A stretch of DNA of 64,000 bases. Origin: Octopus sinensis. Lineage: Eukaryota. Shown piece by piece: positions 2,702-50,885 of the stretch (positions are counted from its first letter, which is position 1; every line of letters starts with the position of its first letter). The notes below the pieces were generated by a model. That model was not told the DNA's origin. It saw only the letters and a program-made list of their open reading frames with translations, and did no database searches. The stretch lies in the NCBI RefSeq assembly GCF_006345805.1, contig NC_043007.1, positions 18,600,001 to 18,664,000 of the forward strand, read 5' to 3'. Position numbers and translations under genes: made by a program.

Positions 2702-2790
<89 letters not shown>

Positions 2791-8349: not shown

Positions 8350-8391
<42 letters not shown>

Positions 8392-13186: not shown

Positions 13187-13714
13187 AAAAAATAAGATGA
13201 GAACAGCGGGAATGCCCTACCTGGGGTTAAATCATACTAACAACACTTTGAGAAGATACTTCTTTGGGAATTTTAAGGTGCTATTTATAAGATATATAGA
13301 GCCGTGAAATGACTTTTAAACGTTTAAAAGAAAAATCAAAATACACAAAGTAGAAAAACACATTTCAAACATTTATAAGGAAAACGAAAAAGAGTCAATG
13401 TTTTAACTTTTAAACATTTCGTATGAGAGATAGAGCGAAATTATAAAAATGAAATTGTTTAAGTGAAAAACGAAACAATTAGATGCTTTACGAATCTGGA
13501 CAAGCGCCTCAAAGATTTGATTTCCACCCTGCGTAACCTTAAAAGACAGAGGAGGAAGGGTGAAGTAAAAAAACTGATTTGATTTTAAAAACAATGAAAA
13601 GATAGGAAGAAGAATATGTGTATATTTCTATACTCAGAATGTATCTCTGTGAGACCATAGGCTTATAGTGTGCATGGTGGATTAGCGGAGAATCTTGTCT
13701 CTCACAGTGACAGA

Positions 13715-14040
13715 AGGCCCTTCATCTGGGATGCCAGATGACACATGCTGTGGCACCTCCAGCGGCAGCTTGGTGTTGTCAGCTACCAACCCAGGCTCCG
13801 CTGCTCGTCAGGCTGAGAAAAACAGTCAAACTTTCCGACAGGTTTATGGTCGAACTTGTAACAATGCAGACCTCCAGCACACTTGGCCCCCGGACCATAT
13901 CCCCGATTACCGATATCGGGGCGGAGATTGCTGTCTGCAAGTGCGAGCCCCGTGGAGTCAGAGTGGCTATTCCAACGCATCTCCCTCGCTATCCTCCGGG
14001 ACAAAACCTTTTCCATTTTGTCTACTGGTGCCATGGGAAA
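13715..14040 (+). mobile_element. CRE-clade (restriction-like endonuclease) non-LTR retrotransposon 3' relic; paralog at 29535-30565 split by a CR1
   Basis: Frameshifted WD..DT...SATNPGSAARQAEK..LSDRFMVELVTMQTSSTLGP...EPRESEWLFQRISLAILRDKTFSILST resembles the CRE RLE pattern AAA.AE..K..KY.....FVPVAVET.G..G...FQRLSVAVQRGNA. Confidence 0.7.
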
Positions 14041-14465
14041 TGTTTCTATATTCTGGGAGGCAAGATTCTCCGTTAATCCATCGCGTATACTATAAGCTTT
14101 TGAATGTTTCACAGAGACAAGTCCCCCATACAAAAACAGATACATTTTCTTCTTCCGATCTTCTTATTCCTTTCTACTCAAATCTATTTTTCACTTCACT
14201 CTTCCACCTTAAAAATGATTTTAAATAAAGTTTGTAATTATTTTAGGTATCGTGTACTTGCCGGAATGTCTATTGGTGCCGGATAATCTAGGTGAATGTT
14301 GTTGAATGGCTTAACGTGATGTAAACACACCAAAAGTGAAGTCAATAAACAATATAACAAATAAGTCGGTGATAACTAATGCACTTGGGAGATGGATGAA
14401 TACCACAACTCATTGTTTCTATAAGTGTCACGAACGAGGAAATACGAAATTATTCTTTTGATTAC

Positions 14466-14535
14466 CTTGAAAGTGGACAGGTTCAACTTAACGGTCGGTC
14501 AGACAAGCGGAAGTGTAGCCATGACAACCTCACGC
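14466..14535 (-). promoter_or_regulatory. Promoter/first exon of acidic gene copy A: ETS site CGGAAGT (14508-14514) abutting an RFX X-box GTAGCCATGACAAC (14515-14528); donor CAAG|GTAAT at 14466
   Basis: Exact fit to the X-box consensus GTHNYY-AT-RRNAAC, locally CpG-rich, and identical in unit B. Confidence 0.65.
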
Positions 14536-15027
14536 ACTACCTACATGACAATCGTTAATCCCAACACCATCACAACCACAATCTTACTACCACCACCATC
14601 GCCCTACTGCTGCGAGTACCACAACTATCATCACAGTTTCTACTCTGTCATCGTCATCACTGCTTTCCCAAACTGCCATGAATTGGGTGGGTCTTCCCCA
14701 GCTGGGCATTTCGTTCTGTATTGCTTCCCATACATTCTTCCTTATTTCTTCTTCATACATTCTCGGCATTTAATGTCTACGCGTCACTTCTCTTTAACAT
14801 TGCGCTGAATACACGAGTATCGGACAATCTACCTTCCACTGGGAAAGGTAATCCTTTATTGGTGGTGGAGGTAATAGGTTCCTGAAACCAGCCGCCTCCT
14901 GTGCTTATGTTTACGGGGCGAAATTCTGCTTTAAGCACCCCTCGTAACTTGTTTTATTTTTTTTTAATCTTCAGAAAACTTTTGCGATTTTGTGCTCTAC
15001 ACACGAGATTATCAAAAATAAATGTGG

Positions 15028-15151
15028 GATCTGTTCACTTTGACCGGCACATTTAAAAAATAATTTTTTGTAACTAAACACTTTTAAACTTCGTAGAATG
15101 TTACATACAGAAAAATATTTTTTAAATGTGCCGGTCAAAGTAAAAAGATCC
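15028..15151. mobile_element. Short MITE (TIR ggatct.tt.actttgaccggcacatttaaaa)
   Basis: Terminal inverted repeats; related TIR to the element at 43249-43657. Confidence 0.7.
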
Positions 15152-17743
15152 TAAATGTGTGTGATTTAAGAGTGATTTAGCTATTGTTTTTAGCACATCC
15201 CACGACCACCTGATACCTCGTTGTCACTCTGACATGTATTGATGTTTTTCAATATTTTTCTCCTCCTACACACATTTGATGATGCACCCAAGGGTGGTTC
15301 GTTGCTGGGATTTTAGCAGAAAATTAGAACTGTCCGTATTAGAAACCCTGATTTTAAAACGGAAATTTGAGGATTTATAGGGTGGGGCTGAAAATTTTTT
15401 GTTTATAATCATATGTATTCCGTGTGTAGAGCACACATTCACGAACATTTTCTGACAAATACAAAGTTGAGGGTGTTTAAACCAGAATTCTGTCATTCAC
15501 AGAACTTCTACCTCCATAGTACAATCAGTAAACTATTCTTGTACCTCTTCTACACACAATGTTGTCCTTTCCTATGAGCCTGTTTGTGACCCCACAATAC
15601 CTTTTTTTGCCCCCATTGTATACACTGGGTACACCATATGGGAATCCTCCCTAGTTATTCTCTGCATTCTGAGAATGGTTGCTTCTCAAATGTCAGCATA
15701 GTCCTGTTTGAAGCTTCTTGATTCTATGTTATGCTTCTTCATTTGGAATTTCTTTTCTCGTAATTCTTTGACAGATTCAGCAATAAGGAATTGGTCACTG
15801 GCATACAAGACTTCCAACAGACAGCTGGTCTTAAACTCCTCTATTGTGGCCTGTAAAACTATAATAAACAAAAATGGGGCTGAGTACTGAAACATGATGG
15901 ACCCTTACCTGCTTTCTAAATTCTTTCCTGAACTCAGTGCCAAATATCACTTTGCATAGAGCATCATCTCTGTATAGGGCTTGTATTGCCTTTACAAGTC
16001 ATTTGTCAGCATTGTTTTCTTAGTGGTTACCAGATTACAGAGCATGATAACATATGAAAGGCCTTCATTTCAACAAATGCTAACTATAATGGTTTATTCT
16101 TTTCTTTTTTATTTAATTTTTAAAGACAGTATGGTATTAAAGATTTGGCTGCTATTTCCAGCAGATAGTGTATCCATATCATTCTCACTAGTGATTAAAA
16201 TTCCCAAATTATTTGGAAGTGAAGCTAGAATTAACTTTCAGCTTTTTATTTCTTATTCAAATGGCTGCAAAGAAATAACACAATTGAGATGACAACAGGC
16301 ATCGACAGGCTAAATGATGAAATAAGACACAGATGCTGGAACTGGATCGGACATGTTCTCAGACAAGATTGCAAAAGTGACTTGGTGGCACTGAAGTGGC
16401 AGTCTGAAGGGAAAAGAACAGCAGGGCACCCTAAAACCATATGGTGAAGAAACTATTACTACTACATCTGATGACAATAATAATAATGATCCTTTCTACT
16501 AAAGGTACAACGCCTGAAATTTTGGGGGAGTGGCACGTAAAAAGCACCAACCGATTGTGGCTGCTGCCAGCCTCCCCTGGCACGTAAAAAGCACTCACTA
16601 CACTCACGAAGTGGTTGGCGTTAGGAAGGGCTCCCAGCTGTAGAAAACACTGCCAGATCAGACTGGAGCCTGGTGCAGCCTCCTGGCTTCCCAGACCCCA
16701 GTTGAACCATCCAACCAGTGATAGCACGGAAAACGGACATTAAATGATGACGATGATGATGATTGGACAAGTCGATTACATTGATCCCAGTGTTTCACTG
16801 GTACTTAATTTATTGACCCCTGAAAGGATGAAAGGCAAAGTCGACCTCGGAGGAATTTGAACTCAGAATGTAGTGACAGACAAAATACCACTAAGCATTT
16901 CACCCAGCATGCTAATGATTCTGCCAGCTCAACACCTTAGTATTATGTCATTATAAATCGACCTTGGTGGGAATTGAGCTAAGAATGTCATGAGTGAAGA
17001 AATGCTGATAGGCGTTTTGTTGAATGTGCTAAGAATTCTGTCAGCACACTGCTTATAATCTTTTATTTGTTTCAGTCATTTGGCTGTGGCCATGCTGGAG
17101 CAACTCCTTTAGTCCAGCAAATCAACCCCAGGCCTTATTCTTCGTAAACCTAGTACTTATTCTATCGGTCTCTTTTGCCAAACTGCTAAGTTACAGGGAC
17201 GTAAACACACCAGCATCAGTTGTCAAGCGATGTTGGGGGGACAAACACAGACACACAAACATATACATACATATATATGGAATGGAAGCACTCCGTCAGT
17301 TACGACGACGAGGGTTCCAGTTGATCCGATCAACGGAACAGCCTGCTCGTGAAATTAACGTGTAAGTGGCTGAGCACTCCACAGACACATGTACCCTTAA
17401 TGTAGTTCTCGGGGATATTCAGCGTGACACAGAGAGTGACAAGGCCGGCCCTTTGAAATACAGCTACAAGAGAAACAGGAAGTAAGAGTGAGAGAAAGTT
17501 GTGGTGAAAGAGTACAGCAGGGATCACCACCATCCCCTGCCGGAACCTCGTGGAGCTTTAGGTGTTTTCGCTCAATAAACACTCACAACGCCCAGTCTGG
17601 GAATCGAAACCGCGATCCTACGACCGCGAGTCCACTGCCCTAACCACTGGGCCATTGCGCCTCCACATACATATATATATATACGTTTAAATATTTGTTG
17701 TGCAAGATTTTTTATGTGAAGTCGTGTGACCATTCCGAAATAT

Positions 17744-17802
<59 letters not shown>

Positions 17803-18074
17803 ATATATATATATATATACATATGACTGGCTTCTTTCAGTTTCTATCTACCAAATCCACTCACAAGGCTTTGGTCGGCCTGAGGCTGAAGACACTTGTC
17901 CAAGGTGCCACACAGTGGAACTGAAACCAGAACCATGTGATTGGTAAGCAAGCTACTTACTAGCACAGCCACTCCTGGCTTTTAATAATGAAATAACAAG
18001 AATGATGATGATGATGATACAAACTTCAAAACATCAAGTGACACGAAGATACTGTTTAAACAATTTATTTAAAA

Positions 18075-21000
18075 TTATACACTCGCTTTTTTGTCCCAAT
18101 CTTTCATTTTGGTGCTGTCGAGTATGAAGTCATCTTTCAGAAAATTCCAAATCTTTTTCTCAGGTTCAGGCTGAAGTAGATAGATATGGTGAATATTTAT
18201 TGTGCAAGTAAATTAACTCAAGGCAAACACAATCAACACAACAACAACAACACAGGTGGACAGAACCAATGCAGCAACCATCTTACAAACAATAACTCTG
18301 AGCACCTTTTCAAACTCCACCTGTCTAACACCTGTGGACATGTTTACAAAGTCAGAAAACAGCACAGCTCCCATGACTTTCGGAAACATTTTTTTCATGC
18401 TAAGAGTTGCTGAAGCATGGAACAAACTGCTGACATCAGTTGTTAGTTGTCGGAGCACTGCATCCTTCAAAACTTCCATGCTTCCTGAGATTCGCCAACA
18501 CTACACCTGATTTTCTTCCCTCCATACACACGCAAGCATGTATCTGACTCATACACTGTTCACTTTCCAGACATTTGTACATTACTGCATATGCTTTACA
18601 TGCACTTTTGACAAGTTGTGGTGCACCCGAGCACTGTATACAACAAGTTCATTATTATTATTATTAAAACACATGGACAGTCCAGCCAAGAAATTAGTTG
18701 AATGGTCAGAAGAGGTGAACATAGTTAACACAATAACACAGGCAAACAGAGTCAACATAACAGAAACAGTCAACACAACAAAACAGGTGAACATAACAAT
18801 TATACAGGTAATCACATACCTGTACTATCTTAATCCTTCAGCATTCAGATTACTCTGTCAAATGTGATGCTTATTTATTCATATTATTATGAATTAATCA
18901 TGCATAATCTCATAGCTTCAAGATTCTGATGAATGATGTGGTAGTTTATTTTTAGAATGATATTGTAAGGTAGGTATAAGGGGCTATATTTGGCCAGTTT
19001 GAGCATAAAGCAGGTAAAATATTTTAGTTGGATAAGGCCAGTTTAAATGCCAAAGTGTTAAGGCATAAGCAGACAGAGCAGTTGCATGGGAGTCTCATGG
19101 GTTCAGGGGACCAATTCTGATCTATGTATGCTGTGACTTGCTGTCAATAAATAACTACTATAGGGCCCAATGTATTGATTTGCCTGTAGGCCTCATGGGT
19201 CTAAGGACCTAATTCTCATTTATCAGCATCGCCTTACTGGTACTTGTGCCGGTGGTATGTGAAAAACAACATTTGAGCGAGGGCGTTGCCGGTGCCACTG
19301 GACTGGCTTCTGTGCAGGTGGCACATAAAAAACACCATTTGAGCGTGGCCGTTGCCTTTTCTGCCTGACTGGCCCTTGTGCTGGTGGCACGTAAAAGCAC
19401 CCACTACACTCTCGGAGTGGTTGGCATTAGGAAGAGCATCCAGCTGTAGAAACTCTGCCAGATCAGATTGGAGCCTGGTGCAGCCATCTGGTTCACCAGT
19501 CCCCAGTCAAACCGTCCAACCCATGCCAGCATGGAAAGCGGACATTAAACAATGATGATGATGATGAAAGCGGTGGTTGGTGTAAAATAGTTTGATTCAG
19601 CTCCAAGCAACATAAAGTTCCATAGCCTCATCACAAGAGTTTAGCTTGTGCTCAGGTGAGTCTACAAAACTTAATGTTGTATAGGGCCAAATCAATCTAT
19701 TTAAAATAATAACATACACACACATATATACATACATACACACACACACAAACAGATAACATAACTAATGGATAACACAAGTCGGGGACAAGACAATACT
19801 CATGAACAAAAGACATAACTAATGGATGATAACATGACTAGGTTAACAGGACATAATTAAAGGGTAACACAAGGGAGAAGAGAAATGACCAATGGAAGAT
19901 ATACGGTAAATCTTCTAGTATAGTCCGCCCTTGAGTAAAATACGTAGGGGATTTTTAGGGGGCTGTACCTCTGAAAAACCTAAACCTTGTGTATAATACA
20001 CACTCCTTCTCTAACTTGAGTCAAGGAGGTCTATATAACGTCCTTGGTTTGTAAAAATGTATACAGCAACGTCCTTTATTATTATTGTATATATAACATA
20101 ATGCAAACGTGTAGCTTTTTTGTGCATTTTGTTTGCAGAAAATAAAGAAATAACAATAATAACAACAATAACATTTAATAAATGTTGCTTATTGTAAGTT
20201 ATGGATGATTCTTTTATGACTTCATTGCTTTCAGGCTTAGCTTAAGATATTTTCGCGCCCGACATCACAAAATGCGTCTGAATAAACATTGCCGGACAGC
20301 AAATAGAGACTCGGACATTGCTTAGAAAATAATTTTCATTTTTAACCTCGTATATAGTACGCACTAGGGATTTTGACCTTTAAATTTTGGGGAAAAATTG
20401 CGGATTATACTCAAGGATTTACGGTAATTGAGGAACACAAGACATAACTAATGGATAACATGACTTGAAAAGACATGAAATAACATGACTAGAGGAGGAG
20501 GTGGGATAACTAATAGATCATATGACTAGGTAAGCAGTGGAATGAGTAGGAGGAAGTAGTCAATTAAGAGCCAAGTTACTAAATTACTTACTTTAATTGT
20601 GTCGTCTGGTTGAGATGACAAATTAACTTTCGGCATGTTTTGAAGCAGGTGAAAGAATGACATCTGCTCTGTGTTCTCAGAGATTTTCTGTTTTTTCCAC
20701 TCAGTTGTGTTTATGGTATTTTCGTTCTCCTCATTCAGTTTCTGTTGTTCCTGTACAGCATTGAATAGCTGGACAATACCTCTGAAAAGAATATATATAT
20801 ATGTATATCTCTATATATATATAAATACATACAAGCAAAATGCCCCCCCCCCCACGTCCAATGGTCGGTGCTGAATCAAATCAGCTGAATAAAGAGCAAT
20901 CAGTGTTTTATTTTCATTAAAAAATAATTAAGCATGCCTTTATTTCAATAAATTTTTTGGTTTTGTTAAATGAAGTTAAGGCAAATAAAAAACTTCTTGA

Positions 21001-21262
21001 GAAACCAAATAGTCTTTCCTTCCTCCAGGCCAAGTTTGAAGAAAATATCTCTTTTACATCTTACTTTTTTGGTCTCTTAAACATACTGCATTTTGTGGTA
21101 TTATTTCAAGCCAGCCTTGAAATAACTTTCCCCTTCAGGCATACAATGAAGTACAAAATAGAAAAACAAATCTTACTGTGTAGCTACTGCTGTCAATTGG
21201 CGTTCTTTATTTATCTCAAGGACATTAGGCTTTGTTCTGGCTAAAAGAAGTTTAAAGATCCT
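18075..21262 (-). pseudogene. RRP15: Orphan duplicate of the last three RRP15 coding exons (21262-21177, 20781-20592, 18170-18075); frame and splice sites intact
   Basis: RIFKLLLARTKPNVLEINKERQLTAVAT/QGIVQLFNAVQEQQK.../PEPEKKIWNFLKDDFILDSTKMKDWDKKASV*. Same exon lengths (86/190/96) as the main gene, AATAAA retained, no 5' exons of its own. Confidence 0.85.
19902..20426. mobile_element. Tc1/mariner-pogo type MITE (TA ends); paralog at 34912-35436
   Basis: tacggtaaatcttctagtatagtccgc ... gcggattatactcaaggatttacggta inverted termini. Confidence 0.75.
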
Positions 21263-21594
21263 CTGGATAAGAAAAAAAGAAAGAGAAAAACAGCAAAATG
21301 AATTAAAGGGGAAGAGAAAAAATAAAACCAACAAGAAATATCTAAAATTTATGAGTGATGTTTATATTTCCATGCTTGCATGGGTCAGATGGAATTTGTA
21401 GAGGCAGATATTCTACAGCTGGAGGCTCTTCCTGTTGCCAACCCTCACCATTCTTTTCATGCAAAAAAATATTTTCCCATGACCAGACATGTTTTCCAAA
21501 GAAGACTGGAAGCAAACAACCTTGCTTCTATGATGATGATGGTGATGATGATGATGACAGTGATTTACAACCATCATGTTATGTCTAGAGAAGG

Positions 21595-21630
21595 GTATAC
21601 ACCAGCATTTCTCAACCAGGGTTCTGTAAG
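21595..21630 (+). mobile_element. Left terminus of a hAT element (TSD gtatacac + CAGCATTTCTCAACC)
   Basis: Partner right terminus GGTTGAGAAACACTG + gtatacac at 40302-40324. Confidence 0.65.
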
Positions 21631-22915
21631 AAAGAGTAAGATAAGCTAATGCTAATTTCAGGATCATAATATTGACATCATCCTATCTAACCTATTATGT
21701 TATCAAAAAATATAACAACCTTGGAAAAATAAAAATCAAGTCAAGTTATTTCACTCGACTTTACGTCTGTCCACCACAAATACTGGAATCGTAAAATCAC
21801 TAGAAAACCGTTAAAAACACATAAAATCATGTTACTGTACATCATCATCATCGGGTTGGATGGTTCAACAGGGATCTGGGAAGCCAGGAGGCTGCACCAG
21901 GCTCCAGTCTGAACTGGCAGTGTTTCTACAGCTGGATGCCCTTCCTAATGCCAACCACTCCAAGAGTGTAGTGGGTACTTTTTACGTGCCACTGGCACAG
22001 GGGCCAGAGGAGGCTGGCTACGGCCATGATCGGTTGTTGCTTTTTATGTGCCACCAGCACGGACGCCAGTCAAGGCGACACTAGCATCGATTAAGAATAA
22101 AAGCCTATAAAGTCATATTAAAATATGTACAGTAAATGTTAAGATACACACCATAAAGTAGTGTAGCTTAGTGAATGAAATCAGCTGTGTTGTTTTATTT
22201 ATCGGTTTTTCAGGGCTGATATTGCACTGTAGTTCCAATATCCACTCTTAGACATCGTTGCCTCTCCTGATTCCCGCAGTTGTTTTGAATTCAGATTTGT
22301 TTACGTCTGTTTATCAGCTAATTTCTTATTCTCATTCATTTGTGACTTTATTTTTTTGCTCTCATGGCTCCCAAGAAAATTCATATTGAAAGTACTAAGC
22401 ATCATGCTTATAATACCGGAAGATAAACTGGCTACGATAAAACGTCATGCAAAAGTGAAAAAGTGGTAACAATTGCACGATCTTTTGGGATGAGCCAGAC
22501 AACTGTATCGACAATTGTACATAATAAAGACAAGATTTTAGCACACATTTTATTAACCATTCCAACTCTATATGAATACTAACCCTAGCCCCTGCACACA
22601 AAGAACTCTTGCAGACTTACAGCATCTCAGAGACCTTTGGGGTCAAGGGACATAACTCAATATCTTAATATAACGCTTGCTCAGTTTGTTTTGCTTTTTT
22701 CACAATATCCACAAAATGGATGTGTTTTTTCAGCTCCAATAACAGAGAGCAGTCACAATATATTTTCTCCATATCTGCCAGCTCTGATGAACATGCAGTA
22801 TTGCTTAACCATGCGATTATCTAACATCCGGTTTAGTATCCAGTGTGAAACCGACTCTTAAAATCAGCCACAATGAATATATAATACTGTACACTTCAAT
22901 TAATATACATAGATA

Positions 22916-22951
<36 letters not shown>

Positions 22952-23497
22952 ATTATGTATGCGTGTATTGTGGAACTCCGTCTGTTATGATGACGAGGGT
23001 TCCAGTTGATCAGATCAACAGAACAGCCTGCTCGGGAAATAAACGTGCAAGTGGATGAGCACTCCACAGACACCTGTACCCTTAACGTAGTTCTCAGGGA
23101 GATTCAGCGTGACACAGTATGTGACAAAGCTGGCCCTTTGAAATACAGGTACAACAGAAACAGGGAGAAAGAGTGAGAGAAGGTCATGGTGAAAGAGTAC
23201 AGCAGGGTTTGCCACCATCCCCTGCCAGAGCCTCATAGAGCTTTAGGTTGTTTTCGCTCAATAAACATTCACAATGCCCGTCCTGAGAATTGAAACCACG
23301 ATCCTACGACTGCAAGTCTGCTGCCCTAACCACTGGGCCATTGCGCCTCCACTATGTGTGTATACATAAATATACACATATGCATGTGTTTGCATACACA
23401 CACACAAGCACATGCACCCATGCATCCATCTTCGCAGCACTGACAGTTCTGTCCATTATCACGAGTAGTCAAGTAATTAACTTCCTCAGAAACACAC

Positions 23498-26400
23498 CTG
23501 AGCTAGAACATTCAGCATCTTCATCACCTGCTTCATCAACGGCTTCATCACCTGCTTCATCACCTGCTTCTAAAGAAGAAGAAAGAAGAAAGATTGAAAA
23601 GAAAACAATTGAAGAATAACTTTTACATACCTTCATTTCTTCAGTTCATACCTTACAACAAATGATTTACACACACACACACACACATATATACAGACAC
23701 AGGTATGGCTGTGTGGTTAAGATGCTTTGTTCCTAAACCATATGGTTTTGGGTTCAGTTCCACTGTGTGGCATCTTGGGCAAATCTCTTCTACTATAGCC
23801 CCAGGGCATCCCAAAGCTTTGTGAGTTGATCTGGTAGATGGAAACTGGGAAAAGCCCATAGTGTGTATATGTGTGTGTGTAATTTTACTGTTTATTGTAA
23901 AATTGTTTTTATTATAAAGACATAATACTAAGGTGGTGAGCTGGCAGAATCATTAGCATGCTGGGTGAAATGCTTTGTGGTATTTTGTCTGCCACTACGT
24001 TCTGAGTTCAAATTCCGCCAAAGTCGACTTTGCCTTTCATCCTTTTTTGGTTAATGAAATAAGTACCAGTTACAGACTGGGGTCGGTATAATCGACTTAA
24101 TCCATTTGTCTGTCCTTGTTTGTCCTCTCTGTGTTTAGCCCCTTGTGGGTAGTAAAGAAATAGGTATTTTGTCTGTCTTCATGTTCTGAGTTCAAATTCC
24201 ATTGAGGTTGACTTATCCTTTCAGTGTTGATAAATTAAGTACCAGCAAAACACTGGGGTCGATATAATCGACTAATCCTCTCCCCCAAAATGGCTAACCT
24301 TATGGCAAAATTTGAAATCATTATTCTTTTATTTGTTTCAGTCATTTGACTGTGGCCACCTTTAGTAGAACAAATTCACTTATTCTTTGTAAGCCTACTA
24401 CTTATTTTATTGGACTCTTTTGCGGAACCACTAAGTGACGGGGACGTAAACATACCAGCATTGGTTGTCAAGCAATGGTGGAGGGGACAAACACAAACAC
24501 ACACACACACACATTCTTTTAGTTGTTTCAGTCACTTGATTGTGGCCATGCTGGAGCACTGCCTTTAGTCGAGCAAATCAACCCCAGGACTTATTCTTTG
24601 TAAGCCTAGTACTTATTCTATCGGCTTTTTTACCGAACTGCTAAGTTACAGGAACGTAAACACACTACCACTGGTTGTCAAGTGATGTTGGAGGTGGGGG
24701 ACAAACACAGACACACATATATACATATACATATATACGACGGGCTTCTTTCAGTTTCCGTCTACCAAATCCACTCACAAGGCTTTGGTCGGCCCAAGGC
24801 TATTGTAGAAGACACTTGCCCAAGGTGCTACGCAGTGGGACTGAACCCAGAACCATGTGGTTGGGAAGCAAGCTACTTACCACACAGCCACTCCTGTGCC
24901 AACGACATAAAGCAAACAAATATGTGTGTACGATTTTTTTTTCAGTTTAATTTAAGTTCTTTTTAAGAGAGTTCAAGCTGGTCACTAACAAGGTGACAAG
25001 ACTTTGAGTTAAGAGAGTTCCTGGTGTTGATATGTAGTTGAGTTGGTATGTTGGTTGAGTTGGTATGTTGGTTGAGTTGGTATGTTGGTTGAGTTGGTAT
25101 GTTGGTTGAGTTGGTATGTTGGTTGAGCTGTCAATACATACACCCTAGTATGTGTATCTATTCATCTAAAGAATCTCAGAGAATTTTTGTTATGTCTTAC
25201 AAAATATTAGCCATCTTACTAACTATAACTCTGAGCACCTTTTCAAATTCCACCCGTCTAACACCCGTGGACATGTTTACAAAGTCAGAAAACAGCACAG
25301 CTCCCATGACTTTTAGAAACATTTTTTTCATGCTAAGAGTTGCTGAAGCATGGAACAGACTGCCGGCATCAGTTGTTAGTTGTCGAAGCACTGCATCCTT
25401 CAAAACTTCCATGCTTCCTGAGATTCGCCAACACTACACCTGATTTTCTCCCCTCCATACACACACAAGCATGTATCTGACTCATACACTGTTCGCTTTC
25501 CAGACATTTGTACATTACTGCATATACTTTATACGCAGTTTCTGATAAGTTGTGGTGCACCTGAGCACTGTATACAATAATTCCATTATTATTGTATTAT
25601 TGTATTATTTTTAAATAAGTCTATTTTTTATTAAACATGAGTAGTCTGGGAACGTTTTAATACCACCTCATAGTAGATATAAACACACACAAACACAAAC
25701 ACACATACATATGATGGGCTTCTTTCAGTTTCTGTCTCACAAATGTGGAATTGGAAGCACTCCGTCGGTTACGACGATGAGGGTTCCGGTTGATCCGAAT
25801 CAACGGAACAGCCTGCTCGTGAAAATTAACGTGTAAGTGGCTGAGCACTCCACAGACACACGTGCACCCTTAACGTAGTTCTCGGGGATATTCAGCATGA
25901 CACAGAGAGTGACAAGGCCGGCCCTTTGAAATACAGGTACAACAGAAACAGGAAGTAAGAGTGAGAGAAAGTTGTGGTGAAAGAGTACAGCAGGGATCAC
26001 CACCATCCCCTGCCGGAGCCTCGTGGAGCTTTTAGGTGTTTTCGCTCACAACGCCCGGTCTGGGAATCGAAACCGCGATCCTATGACTGCGAGTCCGCTG
26101 CCCTAACCACTGGGCCATCGCGCCTACACTCACAAATGTACTCACAAAGCTTTGGTGAGCTCAAGGCTATAGCTGAAGATACTTGCCCAAGGTGCCACAC
26201 AGTGGGACTGAACTACAGGGTTGCAAAGCAAACATCTTAACCACACAACAATATCAGAGTAGATATTTACTTAATGAAAAAGTAAGCACTGTTCTAATAA
26301 AGTCCATACCTTCCTCTTCCGCTTCCTCTTCCTTCAATGGCTCTAATTCTGTTGCTGAAGTTGCTTCAACTTCTTCCTGAGAAGTACAAACCTCAGTTTC

Positions 26401-28694
26401 GTCAACGCTCACAGGAGTTTGTAAAAGATTTTGATCTTCTTCACTTACAACCGCTCCTTCTACTTCTTCCTCTGATATCTCAGACCCTTGTGTCAAAGCA
26501 GATCCAGTTTCACTCATCACATCAGTTTCAGATTTTGCTAACTGATCAGCCTCATCAGTTAATGCATCATCAGGCAACTCAACATCTTCATCCTGAGCTA
26601 ATTCAGGTACATCCTCTGCAAACAAAAGTCCAGAACAGTATGTCTATTATAATACAAACTTTAACATTAATTAAAAGGAATAACATTTGAAAAAAATAAA
26701 AATGGAAAAACATTCTTTTCAGTATTAGTAATAAGAGAAAATATAAACATGTAGAAGTAATAGTATTATTATTATTATCATTACTACTAAGGCAGTGAGC
26801 TAGCAGAACTGTTAGCACACCAGGCAAAATGCTTACTCTTTTACTTGTTTCAGTCATCTGACTGCGGCCATGCTGGAGCACCGCCTTTAGTCGAGGAAAT
26901 CGACCCAAACACTTATTCTTTGTAAGCCTAGTACTTATTCTATTGGCCTCTTTTGCCAAACTGCTAAGTGACGGGGACGTAAACACACTAGCATCAGTTG
27001 TCAAGCGATGTTGGTGGTGACAAACACAGACATACAAACACACACACACACACACACATATATATACATACACATATATATGATGGGCTTCGTTCAGTTT
27101 CCATCTACCAAATCCACTCACAAGGCTTTGGTCGGCCCGAGGCTATAGCAGAAGACACTTGCCCAAGGTGCCACTCAGTGGGACTGAACCCAGAACCATG
27201 TGGTTTGCAATCAAGCTACTTACCACACAGTCACTCCTGCTTGTTAATATTTTGTCTGTCTTTATGTTCTGAGTTCAAATTCTGCTGAGGTCAACTTTGT
27301 CTTTCATCCTTTTGGGATCAGTGAAATAAGTACCAGTTACGCACTGGGGTTGACTAGACCCCCACCCCAAGATTTCAGGCCTTGTGCCTTTAGTATTTAT
27401 TGGTGGTAGTAGTAGTGGTGGTGGTGGTAGTAATAGTAGAAATAGGGGCAATTGCTGCCATGCAATTACATAGCACTAGAATAATGAATTTAATGAATTG
27501 GTCAAAATATGAAATAGACAAATTAGATAGAAAATAATAATAATAATAATAATAATAAAAACTAACCTAGCTATATATGAAGTTGTTTTTACATGAAACG
27601 TGAAATCTAAGAGGAAGACTGCTGACTGGGAGAATGGAGAGCATAGGTCAGCTGACCTTGTACAAATTAAAACAAAAAAAAGTAGTTAAATATACAGTAG
27701 CAGAATAAGATGTGGAATCATTAGCACATGAGATAAAATGCTTAGTGGCATGTCTTCTAGCTCTTTACATTCTGAGTTCAAATCCTGCTGAGGTCAACTT
27801 TGCCTTTAATCCCTTTAGAGTCAAGTATCAGTAAATTACAGGGGATTGGTAAAACTAACTTAGCTCTGACCTGCTTCAAAATGGCTGGTCTTGAACCCTG
27901 AAATGTATGGGTGTCCCTTTCAGGGGGAGTGTTGTGATATTGGTTATTTCACACTCATTGCTGCTGGGTACTCTGTCAGTTGTGACGACGAGTGTCCCAG
28001 TTGAGTTGATCAATGGAAGAACCTGACCAAGAAATTAATCTGCAGGTGACTGAGCAGTTTGCAGGCATGCTTACCCTTAATGTAGTTCTCAGGGAGATTC
28101 ATCATGACACATCATCATGCCCTTGTGCCAGTGGCATGTAAAAAGCACCCACTACACTCACGGAGTGGTTGGCGTTAGGAAGGGCATCCAGCTGTAGAAA
28201 CACTGCCAGATCAGACTGGAGCCTGGTGCAGCTTCCTGGCTTCCCAGACCCCGGTCAAACTGTCCAGCCCATGCCAGCATGGAAAGCGGACCTTAAATGA
28301 TGATGATGATGATGGTGATGATTGTCTGAAGTGCTACACAGTGGGACCAAACATCTTACCATGCTGCCATGCCAATACCTTATTGCTATCAGAACTGGAT
28401 AAACATACAGACCATGATTATCACTGAGACGAAGGCAGGATTAGCAGGCTTAGCTCTAAATACATAAGGAATTATATTATGCGAAAATATGATGTAGCAG
28501 TTAAGATAAGGCAAGTTCCAATCATTACCAAAAGTCACTAAGCCCTGAATGTTACCTTCACCTTCTTCATCCCCTTCCTGACTGCCTTCGCCATCATCTT
28601 GCTGAATGTTACTTTCACTTTGGTCTGCATTCTCATCTTCGCCTACGTTTGTCTCCTCTTCTTGCTCAATATTACCTGAATTGGGATCAGCCAT
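23498..28694 (-). CDS. Acidic gene, 5'-partial duplicate (copy B): exons 28694-28556, 26615-26310, 23569-23498; putative UTR exons ~31025-30985 and 29097-29038
   Basis: MADPNSGNIEQEEETNVGEDENADQSESNIQQDD.../EDVPELAQDEDVELPDD.../EAGDEAGDEAVDEAGDEDAECSSS. Frame open, splice sites intact, ends at the duplication junction. Confidence 0.65.
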
Positions 28695-29747
28695 TGTAAT
28701 ATTATCTAGAGAGAAATGATAAAATAAAATAAAATAGAATTTTGTAAGTATTTGTACTGTCCGACTTCAATGGTACTGTCGCACCCGTTCTCTTATAGCA
28801 GGTGAAATGTGGGCTGCTACAAAGAGGGAAGAACATTGGCTACAACACAAATGGCCAGGAAGAGAAGAGCCATGCAAGAATATATCCAAAATGAATTAAT
28901 TCAAGAATGGATCATGGCTTGCACTGAGTTCACTGCAGAAAATTTCTGCCTACAACTTTCCTACATATTGAGCAAAGCCATTTTCCCGAAGGAAGTAGAA
29001 TTTTGTCTGTTCTCTTGCTATCTAGAACTTTACCTACCTGGGGTTAAATCATACTAACAACACTTTGAGAAGATACTTCTTTGGGAATTTTAAGGTGCTA
29101 TTTATAAGATATATAGAGCTTTGAAATGACTTTTAAACGTTTAAAAGAAAAATCAAAATATATAAAGTAGAAAAAGACATTTTAAACATTTATAAGGAAA
29201 ACGAAAAAGAGTCAATGTTTTAACTTTTAAACATTTCGTATGAGAGATAGAGCGAAATTATAAAAATGAAATTGTTTAAGTGAAAAACGAAACAATTAGA
29301 TGCTTTACGAATCTGGACAAGCGCCTCAAAGATTTGATTTCCACCCTGCGTAACCTTAAAAGACAGAGGAGGAAGGGTGAAGTAAAAAAACTGATTTGAT
29401 TTTAAAAACAATGAAAAGATAGGAAGAAGAATATGTGTATATTTCTATACTCAGAATGTATCTCTGTGAGACCATAGGCTTATAGTGTGCATGGTGGATT
29501 AGCGGAGAATCTTGTCTCTCACAGTGACGGAAGGCCCTTCATCTGGGATGCCAGATGACACATGCTGTGGCACCTCCAGCGGCAGCTTAGTGTTGTCAGC
29601 TACCAACCCAGGCTCCGCTGCTCGTCAGGCTGAGAAAAACAGTCAAACTTTCCGACAGGTTTATGGTCGAACTTGTAACAATGCAGACCTCCAGCACACT
29701 TGGCCCCCGGACCATATCCCTGATTACCGATATCGGGGCGGAGATTA

Positions 29748-30460
29748 TAATAATAATAATTGTGTACAGTGCTCAGGTGCACTACAACTCATCTAAAGTG
29801 CATATATAATCAGGTGTAGTTTCGGCGTGTTTCGGAAAGCATGAGGGTCTTAAAGGATGCAGTGCATGGCAGTCAACAACTGACGCAGGCAGTTTATTCC
29901 ATGCTTCAGCAACTCTGAGCGTGAAAAAATGTTTCCGAAAGTCATGGGAGCTGTATTGTTTTCTGACTTTGTAGCCATGTCCACGTGTGTTAGACACATG
30001 GAGATCAAAAAGGTGTTCAGTGTTGTTGTTGGTGAGGTGGTTGATAATTTTGTGGGTGTTTACCAAGTCCGTCGCCAGACGCCGGAGCTTCAGTGAATCC
30101 ATGCCCAGGGAAACAAGGCGCTCAGAATATGGTAGGTGTCTGATGGATGGTATGCGTTTGGTTGTACGTCTCTGGACAGATTCCAGGAGGTCAATGTTCT
30201 GAGCAAGATAGGGGTTCCAAACTGATGATGCGAATTCCAAGTGTGGTCGTACCATAGCTGTATACAGTTTTAAATAGATGGCTGGAGAGCGGCTAACAAA
30301 AGTCTTGCTGAGTGATGCCAAGACACCCTCGGCCTTCTTGACAATTTTAGAGATATGCTTTGTCCAACGCAAATCACTGCTGACAGTGATGCCTAGGTCA
30401 CGCTCGCAAGAGGATTTCTTGATATCAGTGTTGTGGAGGGAGTATGTGGACGCAGGGTTA
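29748..30460 (-). mobile_element. Young 5'-truncated CR1-clade LINE, specific to unit B
   Basis: ERDLGITVSSDLRWTKHI...LYTAMVRPHLEFASSVWNPYLAQNIDLLESVQRRTTK with an (AAT)n tail; empty site gattgctgtctgc at ~13927 in unit A. Confidence 0.92.
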
Positions 30461-30984
30461 CTGTCTGCAAGTGCGAGCCCCGTGGAGTCAGAGTGGCTAT
30501 TCCAACGCATCTCCCTCGCTATCCTCCGGGACAAAACCTTTTCCATTTTGTCTACTGGTGCCATGAGAAATGTTTCTATATTCTGGGAGGCAAGATTCTC
30601 CGTTAATCCATCACGTATACTATAAGCTTTAGAATGTTTCACAGAGACAACCCCCCCCCCTACAAAATCAGGTACATTTTCTTCTTCCGATCTTCTCAAA
30701 TCTATTTTTCACTTCACTCTTCCACCTTTAAAATGATTTTAAATAAAGTTTGTAATTATTTTAAGTAATCGTATACTTGCCGAAATGTCTATTGGTGCCG
30801 GATAATCTAGGTGAAAGTTGTTGAATGGCTTAACGTGATGTAAACACACCAAAAGTGAAGTCAATAAACAATATAACAAATAAGTCGGTGATAACTAATG
30901 CACTTGGGAGATGGATGAATACCACAACTCCTTGTTTCTATAAGTGTCACGAACAAGGAAATACGAAATTATTCTTTTGATTAC

Positions 30985-31055
30985 CTTGAAAGTGGACAGA
31001 TTCAACTTAACGGTCGGTCAGACAAGCGGAAGTGTAGCCATGACAACCTCGTGCA
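30985..31055 (-). promoter_or_regulatory. Duplicated promoter of acidic gene copy B: ETS + RFX X-box (31034-31047), donor at 30985
   Basis: Same motif block gcggaagtgtagccatgacaac as at 14507-14528. Confidence 0.65.
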
Positions 31056-31544
31056 CTACCTACATGACATTCGTTAGTTCCATTACAGAGCATGAAACCT
31101 ATGAAAGGCCTTTATGTCAACAAATGCTAACTATAATGGTTTATTCTTTTCTTTTTTATTTAATTTTTAAAGACAGTATAGTATTAAAGATTTGGCTGCT
31201 ATTTCCAGCAGATAGTATGTCCATATCATTCTCTCTAGTGTTTAAAATTCCCAAATTATTTGGAAGTGAAGCTAGAATTAATTTTCAGCTTTTTACTTCT
31301 TATTCAAATGGCTGCAAAGAAATAACACAATTGAGATGACAACAGGCATCGACAGGCTAAATGATGAAATAAAACACAGATGCTGGAACTGGATCGGACA
31401 TGTTCTCAGACAAGAATGCAAAAGTGACTTGGTGGCACTGAAGTGGCAGTCTGAAGGGAAAAGAGCAGCAGGGCACCCTAAAACCATATGGTGAAGAAAC
31501 TATTACTACTACTACTACTACTGATGACAATAATAATAATAAAG

Positions 31545-32003
31545 ATGGCCTACAGCAAATATTCTGCTCAATACCACAGATTTGCTTGTCAGTTGTTTGA
31601 CCGTAACCAGTTGAGCATGTCCCTTAGCGGCTGATGATAGGTGCATCTCTGATCACGAGCAGAAGTAGTGGGGGAGCATCATAGCCATGTGTTGAGAGGG
31701 ATTCTTTGAGGTTTGGATAATTCACCTTTGGGAAACGTGGGTGTTTTGTTCAACATCCTTAAGCAACCCTTATTCAGGTACCTTTTGAGCGGGATGGGTT
31801 ACTCAACCAGAAGGAAATTCTAAATGGGCCCCACCTGCAAGATCATGCGCCGTTTATCTTGATATGAGATCACCATGTCGCGCACATATGGTTGTGATGT
31901 ATGTTCCTAGTGTACCCTTATCAGACGGGTAGTTATGATGGGTATACTGGGCTTTGTATATTTTACCCCAGTGTCACTTTGATGGCATGCACTGCTCTCA
32001 CTC
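31545..32003. mobile_element. Unclassified interspersed insertion, specific to unit B, within an (AAT)n run
   Basis: Absent at the paralogous site ~16485; flanked by aataat on both sides. Confidence 0.55.
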
Positions 32004-33385
32004 AATAATAACAATCCTTTCTACTAAAGGCAAAAGGCCTGAAATTTTGTGGGTGGGGACAAGTCAATTACATTGATCCCAGTGTTTCACTGGTAATTAA
32101 TTTATTGACCCCTGAAAGGATAAAAGGCAAAGTCGACCTCGAAGGAATTTGAACTCAGAACGTAGTGACAGGTGAAATACCGATAAGCATTTCGTCCAGT
32201 GTGCCAATGATTCTGCTAGCTCACCACCTTAATAATAATAATAATAATGACGATGATGATGAAAGTCACTTCTGTTGATTTCGGCATGAGAGTATTTGAA
32301 GGAAAAGATTTATAAAATAAAAATAAAAAATAAACAAAAGCTGCATCTATTTGTGATGGATGCATGAATGTAGTTTGGGTCCAGGTATGGATTTTGATAT
32401 GAAGTCATAATGAGGACAATGATGATTTTGATTTTGCCTGGGATTGGACAGATATGTCTGTTAATTGCAGGATATAATTCTCGCATTGTTCTCTTTCTTC
32501 AACTCAAATTGTTTAAATGCATCATGACACATTTTAAACCACTCAGATTGATCAAGGCAATAAGTTCTCCCAAGGTGTTAAGCTAAGCTGTAGGGATTTT
32601 AGTAGTTGTTTCAACTTACCCTTATATCTAAGGATGTGTCTTCTTTAATCCTTGTTGTTATTATTGTCATCAGTAGTAGTAGTAATAGTTTCTTCACCAT
32701 CTGGTTTTAGGGTGCCCTGCTCTAATAAAGGCACAACACTTGAAATTTTGACAGCAGAGGGGAGTTACGTTGAGCCAGTACCCAATTGGTACTTATTTCG
32801 ACTTGCAAAATCGACCTCGGAGGGAATTGAGCTAAGAATGTCATGAGTCAAGAACAGCTGATAGGCGTTTTGTTGAATGTGCTAATAATTCTGTCAACTC
32901 ACTGCTTATATTCTTTGGTTTCAGTCATTTGGCTGTGGCCATGCTGAAGCACCACCTTTAGTTGAGCAAATCAACCCTGGGCCTTATTCTTTGTAAGCCT
33001 AGTACTTATTCTATCGGCCTCTTTTGCTGAACCACTAACTTATGGGGCCGTAAACATACCAGCATCAGTTGTCAAGCGATGTTGGGGGGACAAACACAGA
33101 CACACAAACATATACATATATATACATATGACTGGCTTCTTTCAGTTTCTGTCTACCAAATCCACTCACAAGGCTTTGGTCGGCATGAGGCTAAAGCAGA
33201 AGACACTTGCCCAAGGTGCCACGCAGTGGAACTGAACCGAGAACCATGTGGTTGGTAAGTAAGCTACTTACTAGCACAGCCACTCCTGGCTTTTAATAAT
33301 GAAATAACAAGAATGATGATGATGATGGTACAAACTTCAAAACATCAAGTAACACGAAGATACTGTTTGAACAATTTATTTAAAA

Positions 33386-33813
33386 CTATACACTCTCTTT
33401 TTTGTCCCAATCTTTCATTTTGGTGCTGTCGAGTATGAAGTCATCTTTCAGAAAATTCCAAATCTTTTTCTCAGGTTCAGGCTGAAGTAGATAGATATGG
33501 TGAATATTTATTGTGCAAGTAAATTAACTCAAGGCAAACACAATCAACACAACAACAACAACAACACATGTGGACAGAACCAATGCAGCAACCATCTTAC
33601 AAACAATAACTCTGAACACCTTTTCAAACTCCACCTGTCTAACACCCGTGGACATGTTTACAAAGTCGGAAAACAGCATGCTAAGAGTTGTTGAAGCATG
33701 GAACAAACTGTTATGGGGACGTAAACACACCAGCATTGGTTGTTAAGCGATGTTGGGGGGACAAACACAGACATACAAACATATACACACACACATACAT
33801 ATATATCTATCTA

Positions 33814-33844
<31 letters not shown>

Positions 33845-36800
33845 GACAGGCTTCTTTCATTTTCCATCTACCAAATTCACTCACAAGGCTTTGGTCGGCC
33901 CGAGGCTATAGTAGAAGGTACCACGCAGTGGGACTGAACCCAGAACCATGTGGTTGGTAAGCAAGCTACTTACCACAAAGCCACTCCTACGCCTATGAGT
34001 AGTAGTTTATTTTTAGAATGATATTGTAGGGTAGGTATAAGGGTCTCGATTTGGCCAGTGTGAGCATAAAGCAGGTAAAATATTTTAGTTGGATAAGGCC
34101 AGTTTAAATGCCAAAGTGTTAAGGCATAAGCAGACAGAGCAGTTGCATGGGAGTCTCATGGGTTCAGGGGACCAATTCTGATCTATGTATGCTGTGACTT
34201 GCTGTCAATAAATAGCTACTATAGGGCCCAATGTATTGATTTGCCTGTAGGCCTCATGGATCTAAGGACCCAATTCTCATTTATCAGCATCGCCTTACTG
34301 GCACTTGTGCCGGTGGTACGTGAAAAACAACATTTAAGCGAGGGCGTTGCCAGTGCCGCTGGACTGGCTTCTGTGCAGGTGACACGTAAAAACATTTGAG
34401 CGTGGCCGTTGCCAGTACTGCCTGACTGTCTCTCATGCCGGTGGCACATAAAAGCGCCCCCTACACTCTCAGAGTGGTTGGCGTTAGGAAGGGCATCCAG
34501 CTGTAGAAACTCTGCCAGATCAGATTGGAGCCTAGTGCAGCCATCTGGTTCGCCAGTCCTCAGTCAAATCGTCCAACCCATGTCAGCATGGAAAGCGGAC
34601 GTTAAACAATGATGATGATGATGAAAGCGGTGGTTGGTGTAAAATAGTTTGATTCAGCTCCAAGCATATTAAAGTTCCATAGCCTCATCACAAGAATTTA
34701 GCTTGTGCTCAGGTGAGTCTACAAAACTTTATGTTGTATAGGGCCAAATCAATCTATTTAAAATAACATACACACACACATGCAAACATAACATAACTAA
34801 TGGATAACACAAGTGGGGGACAAGACAATACTCATGAACAAAAGACATAACTAATGGACGATAACATGACTAGGTAACACAAGGGAGAAGAGAAATGACC
34901 AATGGAAGATATACTGTAAATCTTCGAGTATAGTCCGCCCTTGACTATAATACGCAGGGGATTTTTAGGGAGCTGTACCTCTGAAAAATCTAAACCTTGT
35001 GTATAATACGCACCACTTCTCTAACTTGAGTCAAGGAGGTCTATATAACGTCCTTGGTTTGTAAAAATGTATATGGCAACGTCCTTTATTATTATTGTAT
35101 ATATAACATAATGCAAACGTGTAGCTTTTTTGTGCATTTTGTTTGCAGAAAATAAAGAAATAACAATAATAACAACAATAACATTTAATAAATGTTGCTT
35201 ATTGTAAGTTATGGATGATTCTTTTATGACTTCATTGCTTTCAGGCTTAGCTTAAGGTATTTTCGCGACCGACATCACAAAATGCGTCTGAATAAACATT
35301 GCCGGACAGCAAATAGAGACTCGGACATTGCTTAGAAAATAATTTTCATTTTTAACCTCGTATATAGTACACACTAGGGATTTTGACCTTTAAATTTTGG
35401 GAAAAAATTGCGGATTATACTCGAGGATTTACGGTAATTGAGGAACACAAGACATAACTAATGGATAACATGACTAGAGGAGGAGGTGGGATAACTAATA
35501 GATCATATGACTAAGTAAGCAGTGGAATGAGTAGGAGGAAGTAGTCAATTAAGAGCCAAGTTACTGAATTACTTACTTTAATTGTGTCGTCTGGTTGAGA
35601 TGACAAATTAACTTTCGGCATGTTTTGAAGCAGGTGAAAGAATGACATCTGCTCTGTGTTCTCAGAGATTTTCTGTTTTTTCCACTCAGTTGTGTTTATG
35701 GTATTTTCGTTCTCCTCATTCAGTTTCTGTTGTTCCTGTACAGCATTGAATAGCTGGACAATACCTCTGAAAAGAATAAATAAATATGTATATCTCTATA
35801 TATATAAAGCTGAAGTTGTCTGTGTATGGCAGGTTTGGTAGCCTTCAACTAACACTATCTCCTCCGAGACCCTGCAGTGCAAGTTGACCAAAATTGAGAG
35901 TATGATAGAAGAAGGCTTGCTCTTCCTTCCGTAGAAGGAAAAAATTCAAATCGGACCATGTTAACACCAAAAATTATTTACATCAAAAAGTTGTTCTTTT
36001 TCTATGAAAATCCTTATTTTTTACGATTTTTTGACTGCTGTGTCACCATTTTTCAGTGTATTTCAACCAGAAAAATGTTCATTTAAAGAGAATAACAAGT
36101 TACATAATGCAAAATTTTTACTTTTAAAAATTTCCAATTCTAAAGGGTCGAAACAAACCCAAGCAATGCCGGGCGATACTGCTAGTATATATATATAAAG
36201 AGAGAGAGAAAGTGACAAAATGTTGGATAACAGAGCTAATACAACAATAGCAACAAACGTTTTAACCCTTTCGTTACCAAATCGCCCAAAGCCACCCGAA
36301 AAAAATTTTGGTTAATGTGACCAAAGCCGCCCGAATTTACCTATTCATATTTAAATGAGAATATCAGAGCAAATCTCTTTAGTACATTTGTGAAAACACG
36401 TGATTATACTTCGTAAACAGTTCATCTACAGTTTTGTACAACGATCGACGTGTAATTTTAATTCCCTGAATTTTGGGTGATTTTTTTCCACATTTTTTTC
36501 GGCATCGATTTTTCTTCAACTTTGAAAATGGATTGGAGTCTCATGTTATCAAGCATTGATTCCGAATTGGAAAATTTGTGAAGCAAATACTGGGTACTGT
36601 TGTGGATTTAGTTTTTACACAGGGAAACTAATGTTAGTCAGCATGGTTTAGGGTATGATGCAGTCTGGAAGTTATTGTTTGAAGCGATCGATGCGGAAAC
36701 AAACTTATGCAAAATGTAAACAAACACAAAATCAGGGATCAAATTTCGGAAAATTTGTGAAGCAAATACTGGGTACTGTGTGGATTTAGTTTTTATACAG

Positions 36801-48310: not shown

Positions 48311-48341
<31 letters not shown>

Positions 48342-50850: not shown

Positions 50851-50885
<35 letters not shown>

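Follow-up and report, generated by a model that had tools for sequence, protein, structure and literature searches.

The window analysed here, a stretch of 64,000 nucleotides of Octopus sinensis contig NC_043007.1 (positions 18,600,001 to 18,664,000; assembly GCF_006345805.1), contains a tandem duplication of two units, a lower unit A (approximately 22570-4948) and an upper unit B (approximately 39650-23120), which, like all stranded features described below, are read on the minus strand. The duplicated unit spans about 17 kb and contains exons 3-5 of RRP15 together with the promoter and first exons of IQUB, the radial-spoke protein orthologous to FAP253, which the initial annotation had described as an acidic gene. 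The units show 3.3% non-coding divergence and 18 indels longer than 100 nt. In the junction zone (22560-22975, no strand assigned), homology to an IQUB intron ends above and homology to RRP15 intron 2 begins below, and a piece of an old dispersed repeat, about 350 nt long, separates the two homology blocks. SINE-mediated recombination at this site was considered and rejected: no hybrid SINE was shown, the first part of the element being orthologous to the IQUB-intron SINE (94%) and the second part matching the RRP15-intron SINE (88.9%) no more closely than other family members (84-91%). Both parental genes are adjacent and intact, one on each side of the junction, with RRP15 (41856-33386) matching P0009 and IQUB, from 14528 downwards, matching the whole of P0002. 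In Argonauta, whose IQUB record is partial, the two genes carry consecutive accessions on contigs of equal length and may be neighbours there.

The intact IQUB gene begins in unit A with promoter motifs and a non-coding first exon (14466-14528), followed by exon 1 (12235-12384), whose 11-nt leader would read D-N-I-T in frame if entered from position 23498. Further acidic exons (9768-9436, 8497-8462, 8278-8228, a broken exon at 7436, and 5792-5694) lead to the first unduplicated exon (2657-2601), the whole series occupying 2601-9768, and the gene runs on to approximately 18.9 kb below the window. Of the two units, the O. sinensis RefSeq IQUB (P0002) draws on unit A only. Both the intact IQUB and a 1074-aa O. 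vulgaris gene model (CAI9729678.1, P0004) score above the Pfam PF25805 cut-off, match human IQUB (E 1e-157) and Chlamydomonas FAP253 (E 4e-66), and align to solved IQUB chains, including their ubiquitin-like and IQ regions; an ESM Atlas match carries the same IQUB label. IQUB/FAP253 is described in the available sections of PMC11755891 as a radial spoke 1 stalk protein in human, mouse and Chlamydomonas, and is tied there to the sperm tail.

The working RRP15 gene (33386-41856) has exons 1-2 (41856-40593) outside the duplication and the remaining three (39187-39102, 35766-35577 and 33481-33386) inside unit B. Unit A retains orphan copies of the latter: exon 3 (21177-21262; 7/86 differences from 39187-39102), exon 4 (20592-20781; 190/190 identical to 35766-35577, with the Pfam Rrp15p domain) and the last exon (18170-18075) with AATAAA at 18069-18064 (18064-18170 overall). 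The intactness of these same-strand exons, acceptors, donors and polyadenylation signal, noted in the initial annotation, was borne out, as their splice sites match those of the working gene, apart from slight differences that the exon 3 and exon 4 acceptor regions show upstream of the AG. The orphan exons are 97.6% identical to the working ones and open in the RRP15 frame, and without exons 1-2 they make up no complete RRP15 gene. They differ from the working exons at 9/372 sites, where the non-coding rate would predict 12.4 (P 0.21), and they carry derived amino-acid changes at residues conserved as far as Argonauta. That all three are open in frame would suit an alternative RRP15 3' end, reached in frame from exon 2 at 40593 to 21262; we regard this as very improbable, since both annotated RRP15 sequences of O. 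vulgaris and O. sinensis use the unit B exons, a poly(A) signal at 33380 lies between, and the derived changes fall at the conserved residues just mentioned.

Unit B carries, as originally proposed, a promoter, an ATG exon and two further open exons, and lacks all later IQUB exons. Its promoter motifs (31023-31047), which from their consensus we take to be an X-box-like element (31047-31034) and an ETS-like element (31033-31027), are identical to 14528-14504 in unit A. With up to two mismatches, the X-box-like motif has 2 matches against 0.29 expected, both being copies of one site, and a relaxed pattern occurs at chance level (4 matches against 4.9 expected). The core of this promoter duplicates that of IQUB and is hence not newly formed. 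Below it lie a non-coding first exon (30985-31030, start inferred; 45/46 identical to unit A, GT donor), exon 1 (28705-28556, with the ATG at 28694, ending in phase 1 and matching residues 1-46 of P0004), exon 2 (26615-26310; 306 nt, acidic, present in only two copies in genome G000) and exon 3 (23569-23498; 72 nt of 12-nt repeats), at whose donor the locus branches. Exons 1-3 are all open and have AG/GT ends. Unit B also lacks the two open short acidic exons (8497-8462 and 8278-8228) and the broken one (7436) present in unit A. The acidic segment consists of 38% Asp+Glu and is likely disordered.

Contigs from four sequencing runs, X5 and X7 from organism A and X15 and X18 from organism B (two studies), were compared at unit B exon 3; their RNA status is a guess. 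Exons 2 and 3 are joined in X7 and X18 contigs, and introns are covered in none of the four runs. In X15 and X18, contigs leave exon 23569-23498 and enter the orphan RRP15 exon at 21262, continuing for 83 and 117 letters, respectively, beyond the donor; the 330-nt X18 contig also includes the tail of exon 2. Across the 20 letters adjoining the donor, there are no differences from the orphan exon and four from the working RRP15 exon. These contigs show an IQUB exon spliced to an orphan RRP15 exon and are probably RNA, so that the junction predicted in the initial annotation was recovered in two of the four runs, with the orphan's own letters. Among the other copy-specific variants listed there, the C giving Gln did not hold as such, being ancestral (the RRP15 of O. 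bimaculoides and Argonauta has Gln). The join has a contig depth of 3 and 4.2, compared with 15.5 for the ordinary unit A exon 3-4 join in X15, and exon 2-3 contigs reach 1512-1694 in X7, although depth cannot rank gene parts. For organism A, X5 has no piece at the donor and the X7 contig stops one letter beyond it; this end fits a fork between two acceptors that both start with A, or a contig merged with a repeat-number allele, and X7 was left uncounted.

Splicing of 23498 to 21262 yields a predicted protein of 175 aa ending in E-D-L-stop, as previously proposed, with TAA at 21254-21252; RRP15 is read out of frame and contributes no residue, and joining 23498 to any one of the three orphan exons gives a product that ends at 175, 187 or 173 aa. 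The earlier claim that a copy A change creates the early stop needs amending: the ancestral exon stops nine codons later within the same exon (184 aa), and the change merely moves the stop. The predicted product lacks the ubiquitin-like domain, IQ motif and IQUB domain, all encoded in exons absent from unit B; the alignment of human IQUB to P0004 begins only at residue 385, and a Pfam scan of exon 2 returned no domain. Compared with IQUB/FAP253, the chimera would thus contain no conserved part, and compared with RRP15 (Pfam PF07890), the orphan lacks exons 1-2 and is not in its own frame within the chimera. With both downstream introns spliced, the stop would precede the following two junctions by 75 and 265 nt, and a transcript is marked for NMD when its stop lies more than 50-55 nt ahead of a downstream junction; by junction distance, the chimera would therefore be an NMD target. 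Its predicted 3' UTR, made of the orphan exons, extends 372 nt to AATAAA and is not long. In Drosophila and C. elegans, EJC-independent decay is keyed to long 3' UTRs, according to the accessible part of PMC8395947, and a literature search on NMD in molluscs returned nothing relevant.

These properties bear on the proposal that the 175-aa acidic fragment is a stable new sperm or cilia gene product, comparable to Sdic, that has taken over the RRP15 exons for its 3' UTR. The window and organism B share both the join and the stop-bearing letters of the orphan, the 3' UTR is short, unit B exons occur in contigs of high depth in X7, and the absence of changes at the 190 sites of orphan exon 4 has P 0.0016 if the full non-coding rate is applied. 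This identity is, however, less striking once one copy is allowed constraint, and could be due to gene conversion. Against the proposal stand the position of the stop relative to both downstream junctions, the absence of any Pfam or IQUB domain, and the annotation record: no short chimeric protein was found among 27 candidates of 55-177 aa (E 0.001), a weak test given the low-complexity query, and O. vulgaris accessions pass from RRP15 (676, 677) directly to IQUB (678-681) with no gap. We consider a stable product of this kind unlikely.

The same donor has a second potential partner. The O. vulgaris model CAI9729678.1 consists of unit B exons 1-3, the residues D-N-I-T and then unit A exon 1, so that the acidic N-terminus is doubled, and the equivalent 23498 to 12384 join is open and in frame in the window DNA. 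This one gene model is the basis of the far splice; the join occurs in no contig of the runs compared, of which X15 and X18 show what follows the donor, and the O. sinensis RefSeq IQUB, with unit A only, speaks against it. In the O. vulgaris reference annotation, isoforms were added by PASA with Iso-Seq and RNA-seq, as stated in the portion of PMC10700109 at hand. In this model, the unit B exons run in frame into the intact IQUB as well, and the corresponding transcript is likely to exist as real RNA. Neither the identity of IQUB nor this in-frame splice was part of the initial annotation. Some 415 residues precede the ubiquitin-like domain in the long model, compared with about 130 in human IQUB. 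Among the top hits, 13 chosen IQUB relatives have a mostly acidic N-terminal region of anywhere between 61 and 468 aa, which indicates that changes in its length are tolerated.

Since both copies occur in an O. vulgaris gene model, the duplication predates the split of O. vulgaris and O. sinensis, placed at 2.5 Myr in the cited literature; the duplication junction and the splice across it stand as first described, whereas the supposed youth of the unit does not. The independent O. vulgaris record also argues against the two units being haplotypes mis-assembled in tandem, which the initial annotation had named as counting against its own reading. Octopus genomes do show heterozygosity (1.22% in O. 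vulgaris, in the sections of PMC10700109 consulted), but one protein among the gene models of the second species combines both copies, the RNA-like contigs join an IQUB exon to an RRP15 exon, which could not come from a haplotype with one copy, where RRP15 lies upstream of IQUB, and the units differ by the divergence and large indels given above. Mis-assembly is largely refuted and hardly credible.

Between O. sinensis and O. vulgaris, the unit B peptide is identical in 169/173 columns, and the unit A N-terminus in 209/223. All exon 2 and 3 indels between the copies keep the frame, compared with 6/32 non-coding indels that are multiples of three; these indels are assignable to neither copy, the representative search for an outgroup N-terminus having returned only fragments that lack it. 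Exon 1 differs at 5/150 sites between the copies, which is the non-coding rate, and pN/pS between copies is 0.075/0.101 (0.74). These comparisons give weak support to selection on the unit B exons. If both outputs were instead tolerated by-products, the duplicated promoter firing, its RNA being spliced to the next acceptor and neither product mattering, the neutral rate of exon 1, the pN/pS value, the derived changes and unexceptional divergence of the orphan exons and the shallow contigs of the chimeric join would be as expected. Frames and splice sites have nevertheless been kept in two species despite the 18 large indels between the units, the unit B peptide is conserved between these species, and the X7 exon 2-3 contigs are deep, with the same proviso that depth does not rank gene parts. 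Such an explanation has a real but minor chance of being correct.

The reading that we favour, with slightly better than even confidence, is that of an IQUB/RRP15 tandem duplication in which the near splice would give the 175-aa fragment and the far splice would lengthen IQUB, the latter being what likely keeps the unit B exons open. Duplication of the RRP15 3' end and the IQUB 5' end would have left a second IQUB promoter and three acidic exons upstream of the orphan RRP15 exons, and transcripts from this upper promoter would reach the donor at 23498 and face two acceptors. The near one, at 21262, would lead into the RRP15 cassette, with its immediate stop, predicted 3' UTR and poly(A) site, and act as an exon trap; the far one, at 12384, would skip 11.1 kb and add about 175 N-terminal acidic residues to full IQUB. 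Translation of either product, and which of the two selection favours, we infer. A bolder proposal, which we put forward only tentatively and consider rather doubtful, is that of a switchable flagellar locus in the common-octopus lineage, with a strong second IQUB promoter and an exon 3 donor choosing between the 175-aa protein and a doubled-tail IQUB, both made in sperm and selected, as a molluscan parallel to Sdic.

Chimeric genes from tandem-duplication junctions have been studied mostly in Drosophila. Sdic of Drosophila melanogaster, as presented in the available text of PMC3395120, is alike in having arisen when two neighbouring genes were duplicated and fused, an intact parent remaining on each side, in drawing its coding sequence from one parent, itself microtubule-motor-related, and in being tied to the sperm tail (for IQUB, see PMC11755891). 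It differs in having a new promoter, in keeping most parental domains and in being amplified, whereas the octopus promoter is a plain copy and the short product is the acidic tail alone; in addition, the second octopus gene supplies the predicted 3' UTR, and splicing can take the 5' exons back, in frame, to the intact parent as well. The protein and function of Sdic are documented in that source; the octopus protein is a prediction. Tandem-duplication chimeras of D. yakuba (PMC5460883, available sections) likewise have breakpoints in two neighbouring genes, a promoter moved onto foreign exons and new transcripts, but are population variants, unlike the octopus case with its 3.3% divergence in two species. 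A full-text search of the accessible literature returned nothing on IQUB in octopus or on tandem-duplication chimeric genes in octopus or cephalopods. The annotations of O. sinensis and of O. vulgaris each omit part of the locus, which represents a dated and probably transcribed case with both parents intact and one donor with two outputs, the far one deduced from the gene model. It permits direct tests of how duplication junctions persist, of whether cephalopod NMD obeys the junction rule, and of whether the structurally unresolved acidic tail of a radial-spoke protein bears on the sperm beat.

Comparison of the window with itself revealed a chain of homologous blocks on the same strand, pairing 4948-22560 (unit A) with 23120-39639 (unit B), with a non-coding divergence of 3.3% (227 of 6,825 aligned sites) and 18 gaps longer than 100 nt between blocks, 11 in unit A and 7 in unit B. 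Searched against the O. sinensis genome, unit-B exon 2 and orphan RRP15 exon 3 each returned exactly two copies, those of units A and B. The duplicated segment comprises the 3' end of RRP15, the second gene of the duplication, and the 5' end of IQUB, so that both minus-strand parents remain whole and the additional IQUB 5' exons lie directly above the orphan RRP15 3' exons. The junction falls within 22975-22560, most of which is an old dispersed repeat, 70-77% similar to copies elsewhere; a hybrid SINE was sought there, with no sign of one. A 1.5-kb insert (14563-16034) is located ~35 nt upstream of the unit-A X-box, and the shared upstream DNA is therefore kept at the unit-B promoter only. 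A LINE-like piece of 0.7 kb (29746-30458) occupies part of the unit-B first intron.

The translation of the unit-A gene follows the O. sinensis RefSeq IQUB protein over its length, and the exons below the window, two of seven pieces of which exceed the Pfam IQUB cut-off, match the human IQUB and Chlamydomonas FAP253 chains. IQUB is described as a radial spoke 1 stalk protein, and men and mice that have lost it produce less motile sperm (PMC11755891). The consecutive accession numbers of the Argonauta IQUB and RRP15 proteins fit an ancestral IQUB-RRP15 neighbourhood. Unit-A IQUB harbors a small set of related short acidic exons whose acceptors are nearly identical (8497-8462, 8278-8228 and 7436), the last being 97% similar to the 8278 exon but repeat-interrupted and without a donor. 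Elsewhere in IQUB, one exon is preceded, within its upstream intron, by a copy of its own tail and donor (L011, ~6850-6930). A DCAF4-like gene (44534-59757, + strand; Pfam Beta-prop_DCAF4, E 6e-17) lies head to head with RRP15, and further minus-strand exons (L015-L021) presumably resemble DEAD-box helicase and BDP1.

Each exon and splice site listed in the initial annotation, and likewise its poly(A) signal, is present in the window. Unit-B exons 1-3 (28705-28556, 26615-26310 and 23569-23498) consist of 172 codons plus one base, and the computed join 23498->21262 yields the proposed product of 175 aa ending in E-D-L-stop, with an Asp+Glu content of 38% in the acidic segment. Joined to orphan exons 4 and 5, the same donor leads to stops at 187 and 173 aa, respectively, so RRP15 is never read in frame from 23498. 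The unit-A change once credited with creating the early stop merely shifts it, since exon 3 of the working gene also stops, within the same exon, at 184 aa. Against outgroup RRP15 proteins, the supposed copy-A variants KM>IF, K>T and E>A are indeed derived in the orphan, whereas its Gln is ancestral, the Gln to Lys change having occurred in the working gene, in common between O. vulgaris and O. sinensis.

With unit-B exon 2 as the query, 24 runs were retrieved, none recorded as RNA and several small and RNA by guess. Twenty of the 24 contain at least half of the exon 2 words; as unit A shares only 53 of these 321 words, the 20 runs contain unit-B-like sequence. Four of the 24 (X5 and X7 of organism A, X15 and X18 of organism B) were aligned to unit-B exon 3 and its flanks, and none of the four covers the flanking introns. 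The junction 23498->21262 was found as proposed in X15 and X18 (studies P8 and P9; RNA status guessed), whose contigs continue past the donor for 83 and 117 letters, respectively. The first 20 of these equal the orphan exon start and differ from the working RRP15 exon at four positions, and in X18 the contig extends beyond the end of the 86-nt orphan exon. The X18 contig also includes the end of exon 2, in the version seen in the O. vulgaris protein CAI9729678.1, which suggests that organism B is probably O. vulgaris. At 21238, within the orphan exon, the X18 contig has G where the transcribed strand of the window has A, representing either an allele or an A-to-I edit; X15 equals the window here. 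In organism A neither run contains the junction, both being silent past the donor rather than negative: X7 joins exons 2 and 3 at a contig depth of about 1500-1700 and ends one letter beyond the donor, and X5 has no piece there. The chimeric contigs have depths of 3 and 4.2, and the X15 contig across the ordinary unit-A join of exons 3 and 4 has a depth of 15.5, values that cannot rank gene parts.

The chimeric stop lies 75 and 265 nt upstream of the next two junctions, exceeding the 50-55 nt of the NMD rule, a mollusc form of which was not found in our literature search. The predicted 3' UTR, however, is only 372 nt, and Drosophila and C. elegans are described as having an EJC-independent form of NMD that depends on long 3' UTRs (PMC8395947). 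The chimeric RNA, its RNA status being guessed, survives enough for assembly in two studies.

A protein search with unit-B exon 2 retrieved a single cluster of five IQUB sequences. Among them, O. vulgaris CAI9729678.1 (1074 aa) consists of unit-B exons 1-3, D-N-I-T, unit-A exon 1 and the whole of IQUB, the 11-nt leader of unit-A exon 1 bringing back the frame after the phase-1 donor. The corresponding join in the window, 23498->12384, is likewise open, and this gene model makes a long isoform likely. Isoforms were added to the O. vulgaris reference annotation via PASA from Iso-Seq and RNA-seq, the support for this protein itself being a gene model, and heterozygosity is given as 1.22% (PMC10700109). 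The N-terminal regions of IQUB relatives span 61-468 aa and are mostly acidic (13 sequences chosen from hits and queries), which places the doubled tail within the range of the family. Tandem mis-assembly of two haplotypes is very unlikely, because the model has the two copies arranged in this way in a second species and the contigs of X15 and X18 contain the IQUB-to-RRP15 join. For the same reason, the duplication predates the split of O. vulgaris from O. sinensis, cited as 2.5 Myr, that from O. bimaculoides being 34 Myr (PMC10700109).

Every indel in exons 2 and 3 keeps the frame, versus six of 32 non-coding indels that are multiples of three, an argument for selection weakened by the 12-nt repeats of exon 3, which are frame-keeping on their own. 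Of the 173 columns of the unit-B peptide, 169 are the same in O. vulgaris and O. sinensis, compared with 292 of 298 for RRP15 and 209 of 223 for the unit-A N-terminus, so the peptide is conserved at about the RRP15 level and above the unit-A N-terminus. Counting against selection, exon 1 diverges between copies at the non-coding rate, exon 2 does so faster (23/288), and pN/pS is 0.74. The orphan exons combined (9/372 differences) show no departure from neutrality, exon 4 alone being unchanged. The first ~39 residues of exon 2 (26615-26500 and 9768-9650) are the same in both O. vulgaris copies and differ at six residues in those of the window, possibly through gene conversion or fast change.

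Our full-text search, with subscription journals mostly outside its scope, found no paper on octopus IQUB or a cephalopod tandem-duplication chimeric gene. The duplication structure is directly visible in the assembly and the chimeric splice in contigs of guessed RNA status; the functions of the outputs are putative. As described in PMC3395120, Sdic is likewise a duplication-fusion of adjacent genes with its coding part from one parent, and the D. yakuba chimeric structures formed by tandem duplication work similarly (PMC5460883). Relative to these cases as outlined there, the octopus locus differs in that the promoter was copied, the short product lacks any domain and in-frame rejoining of the parent is possible.
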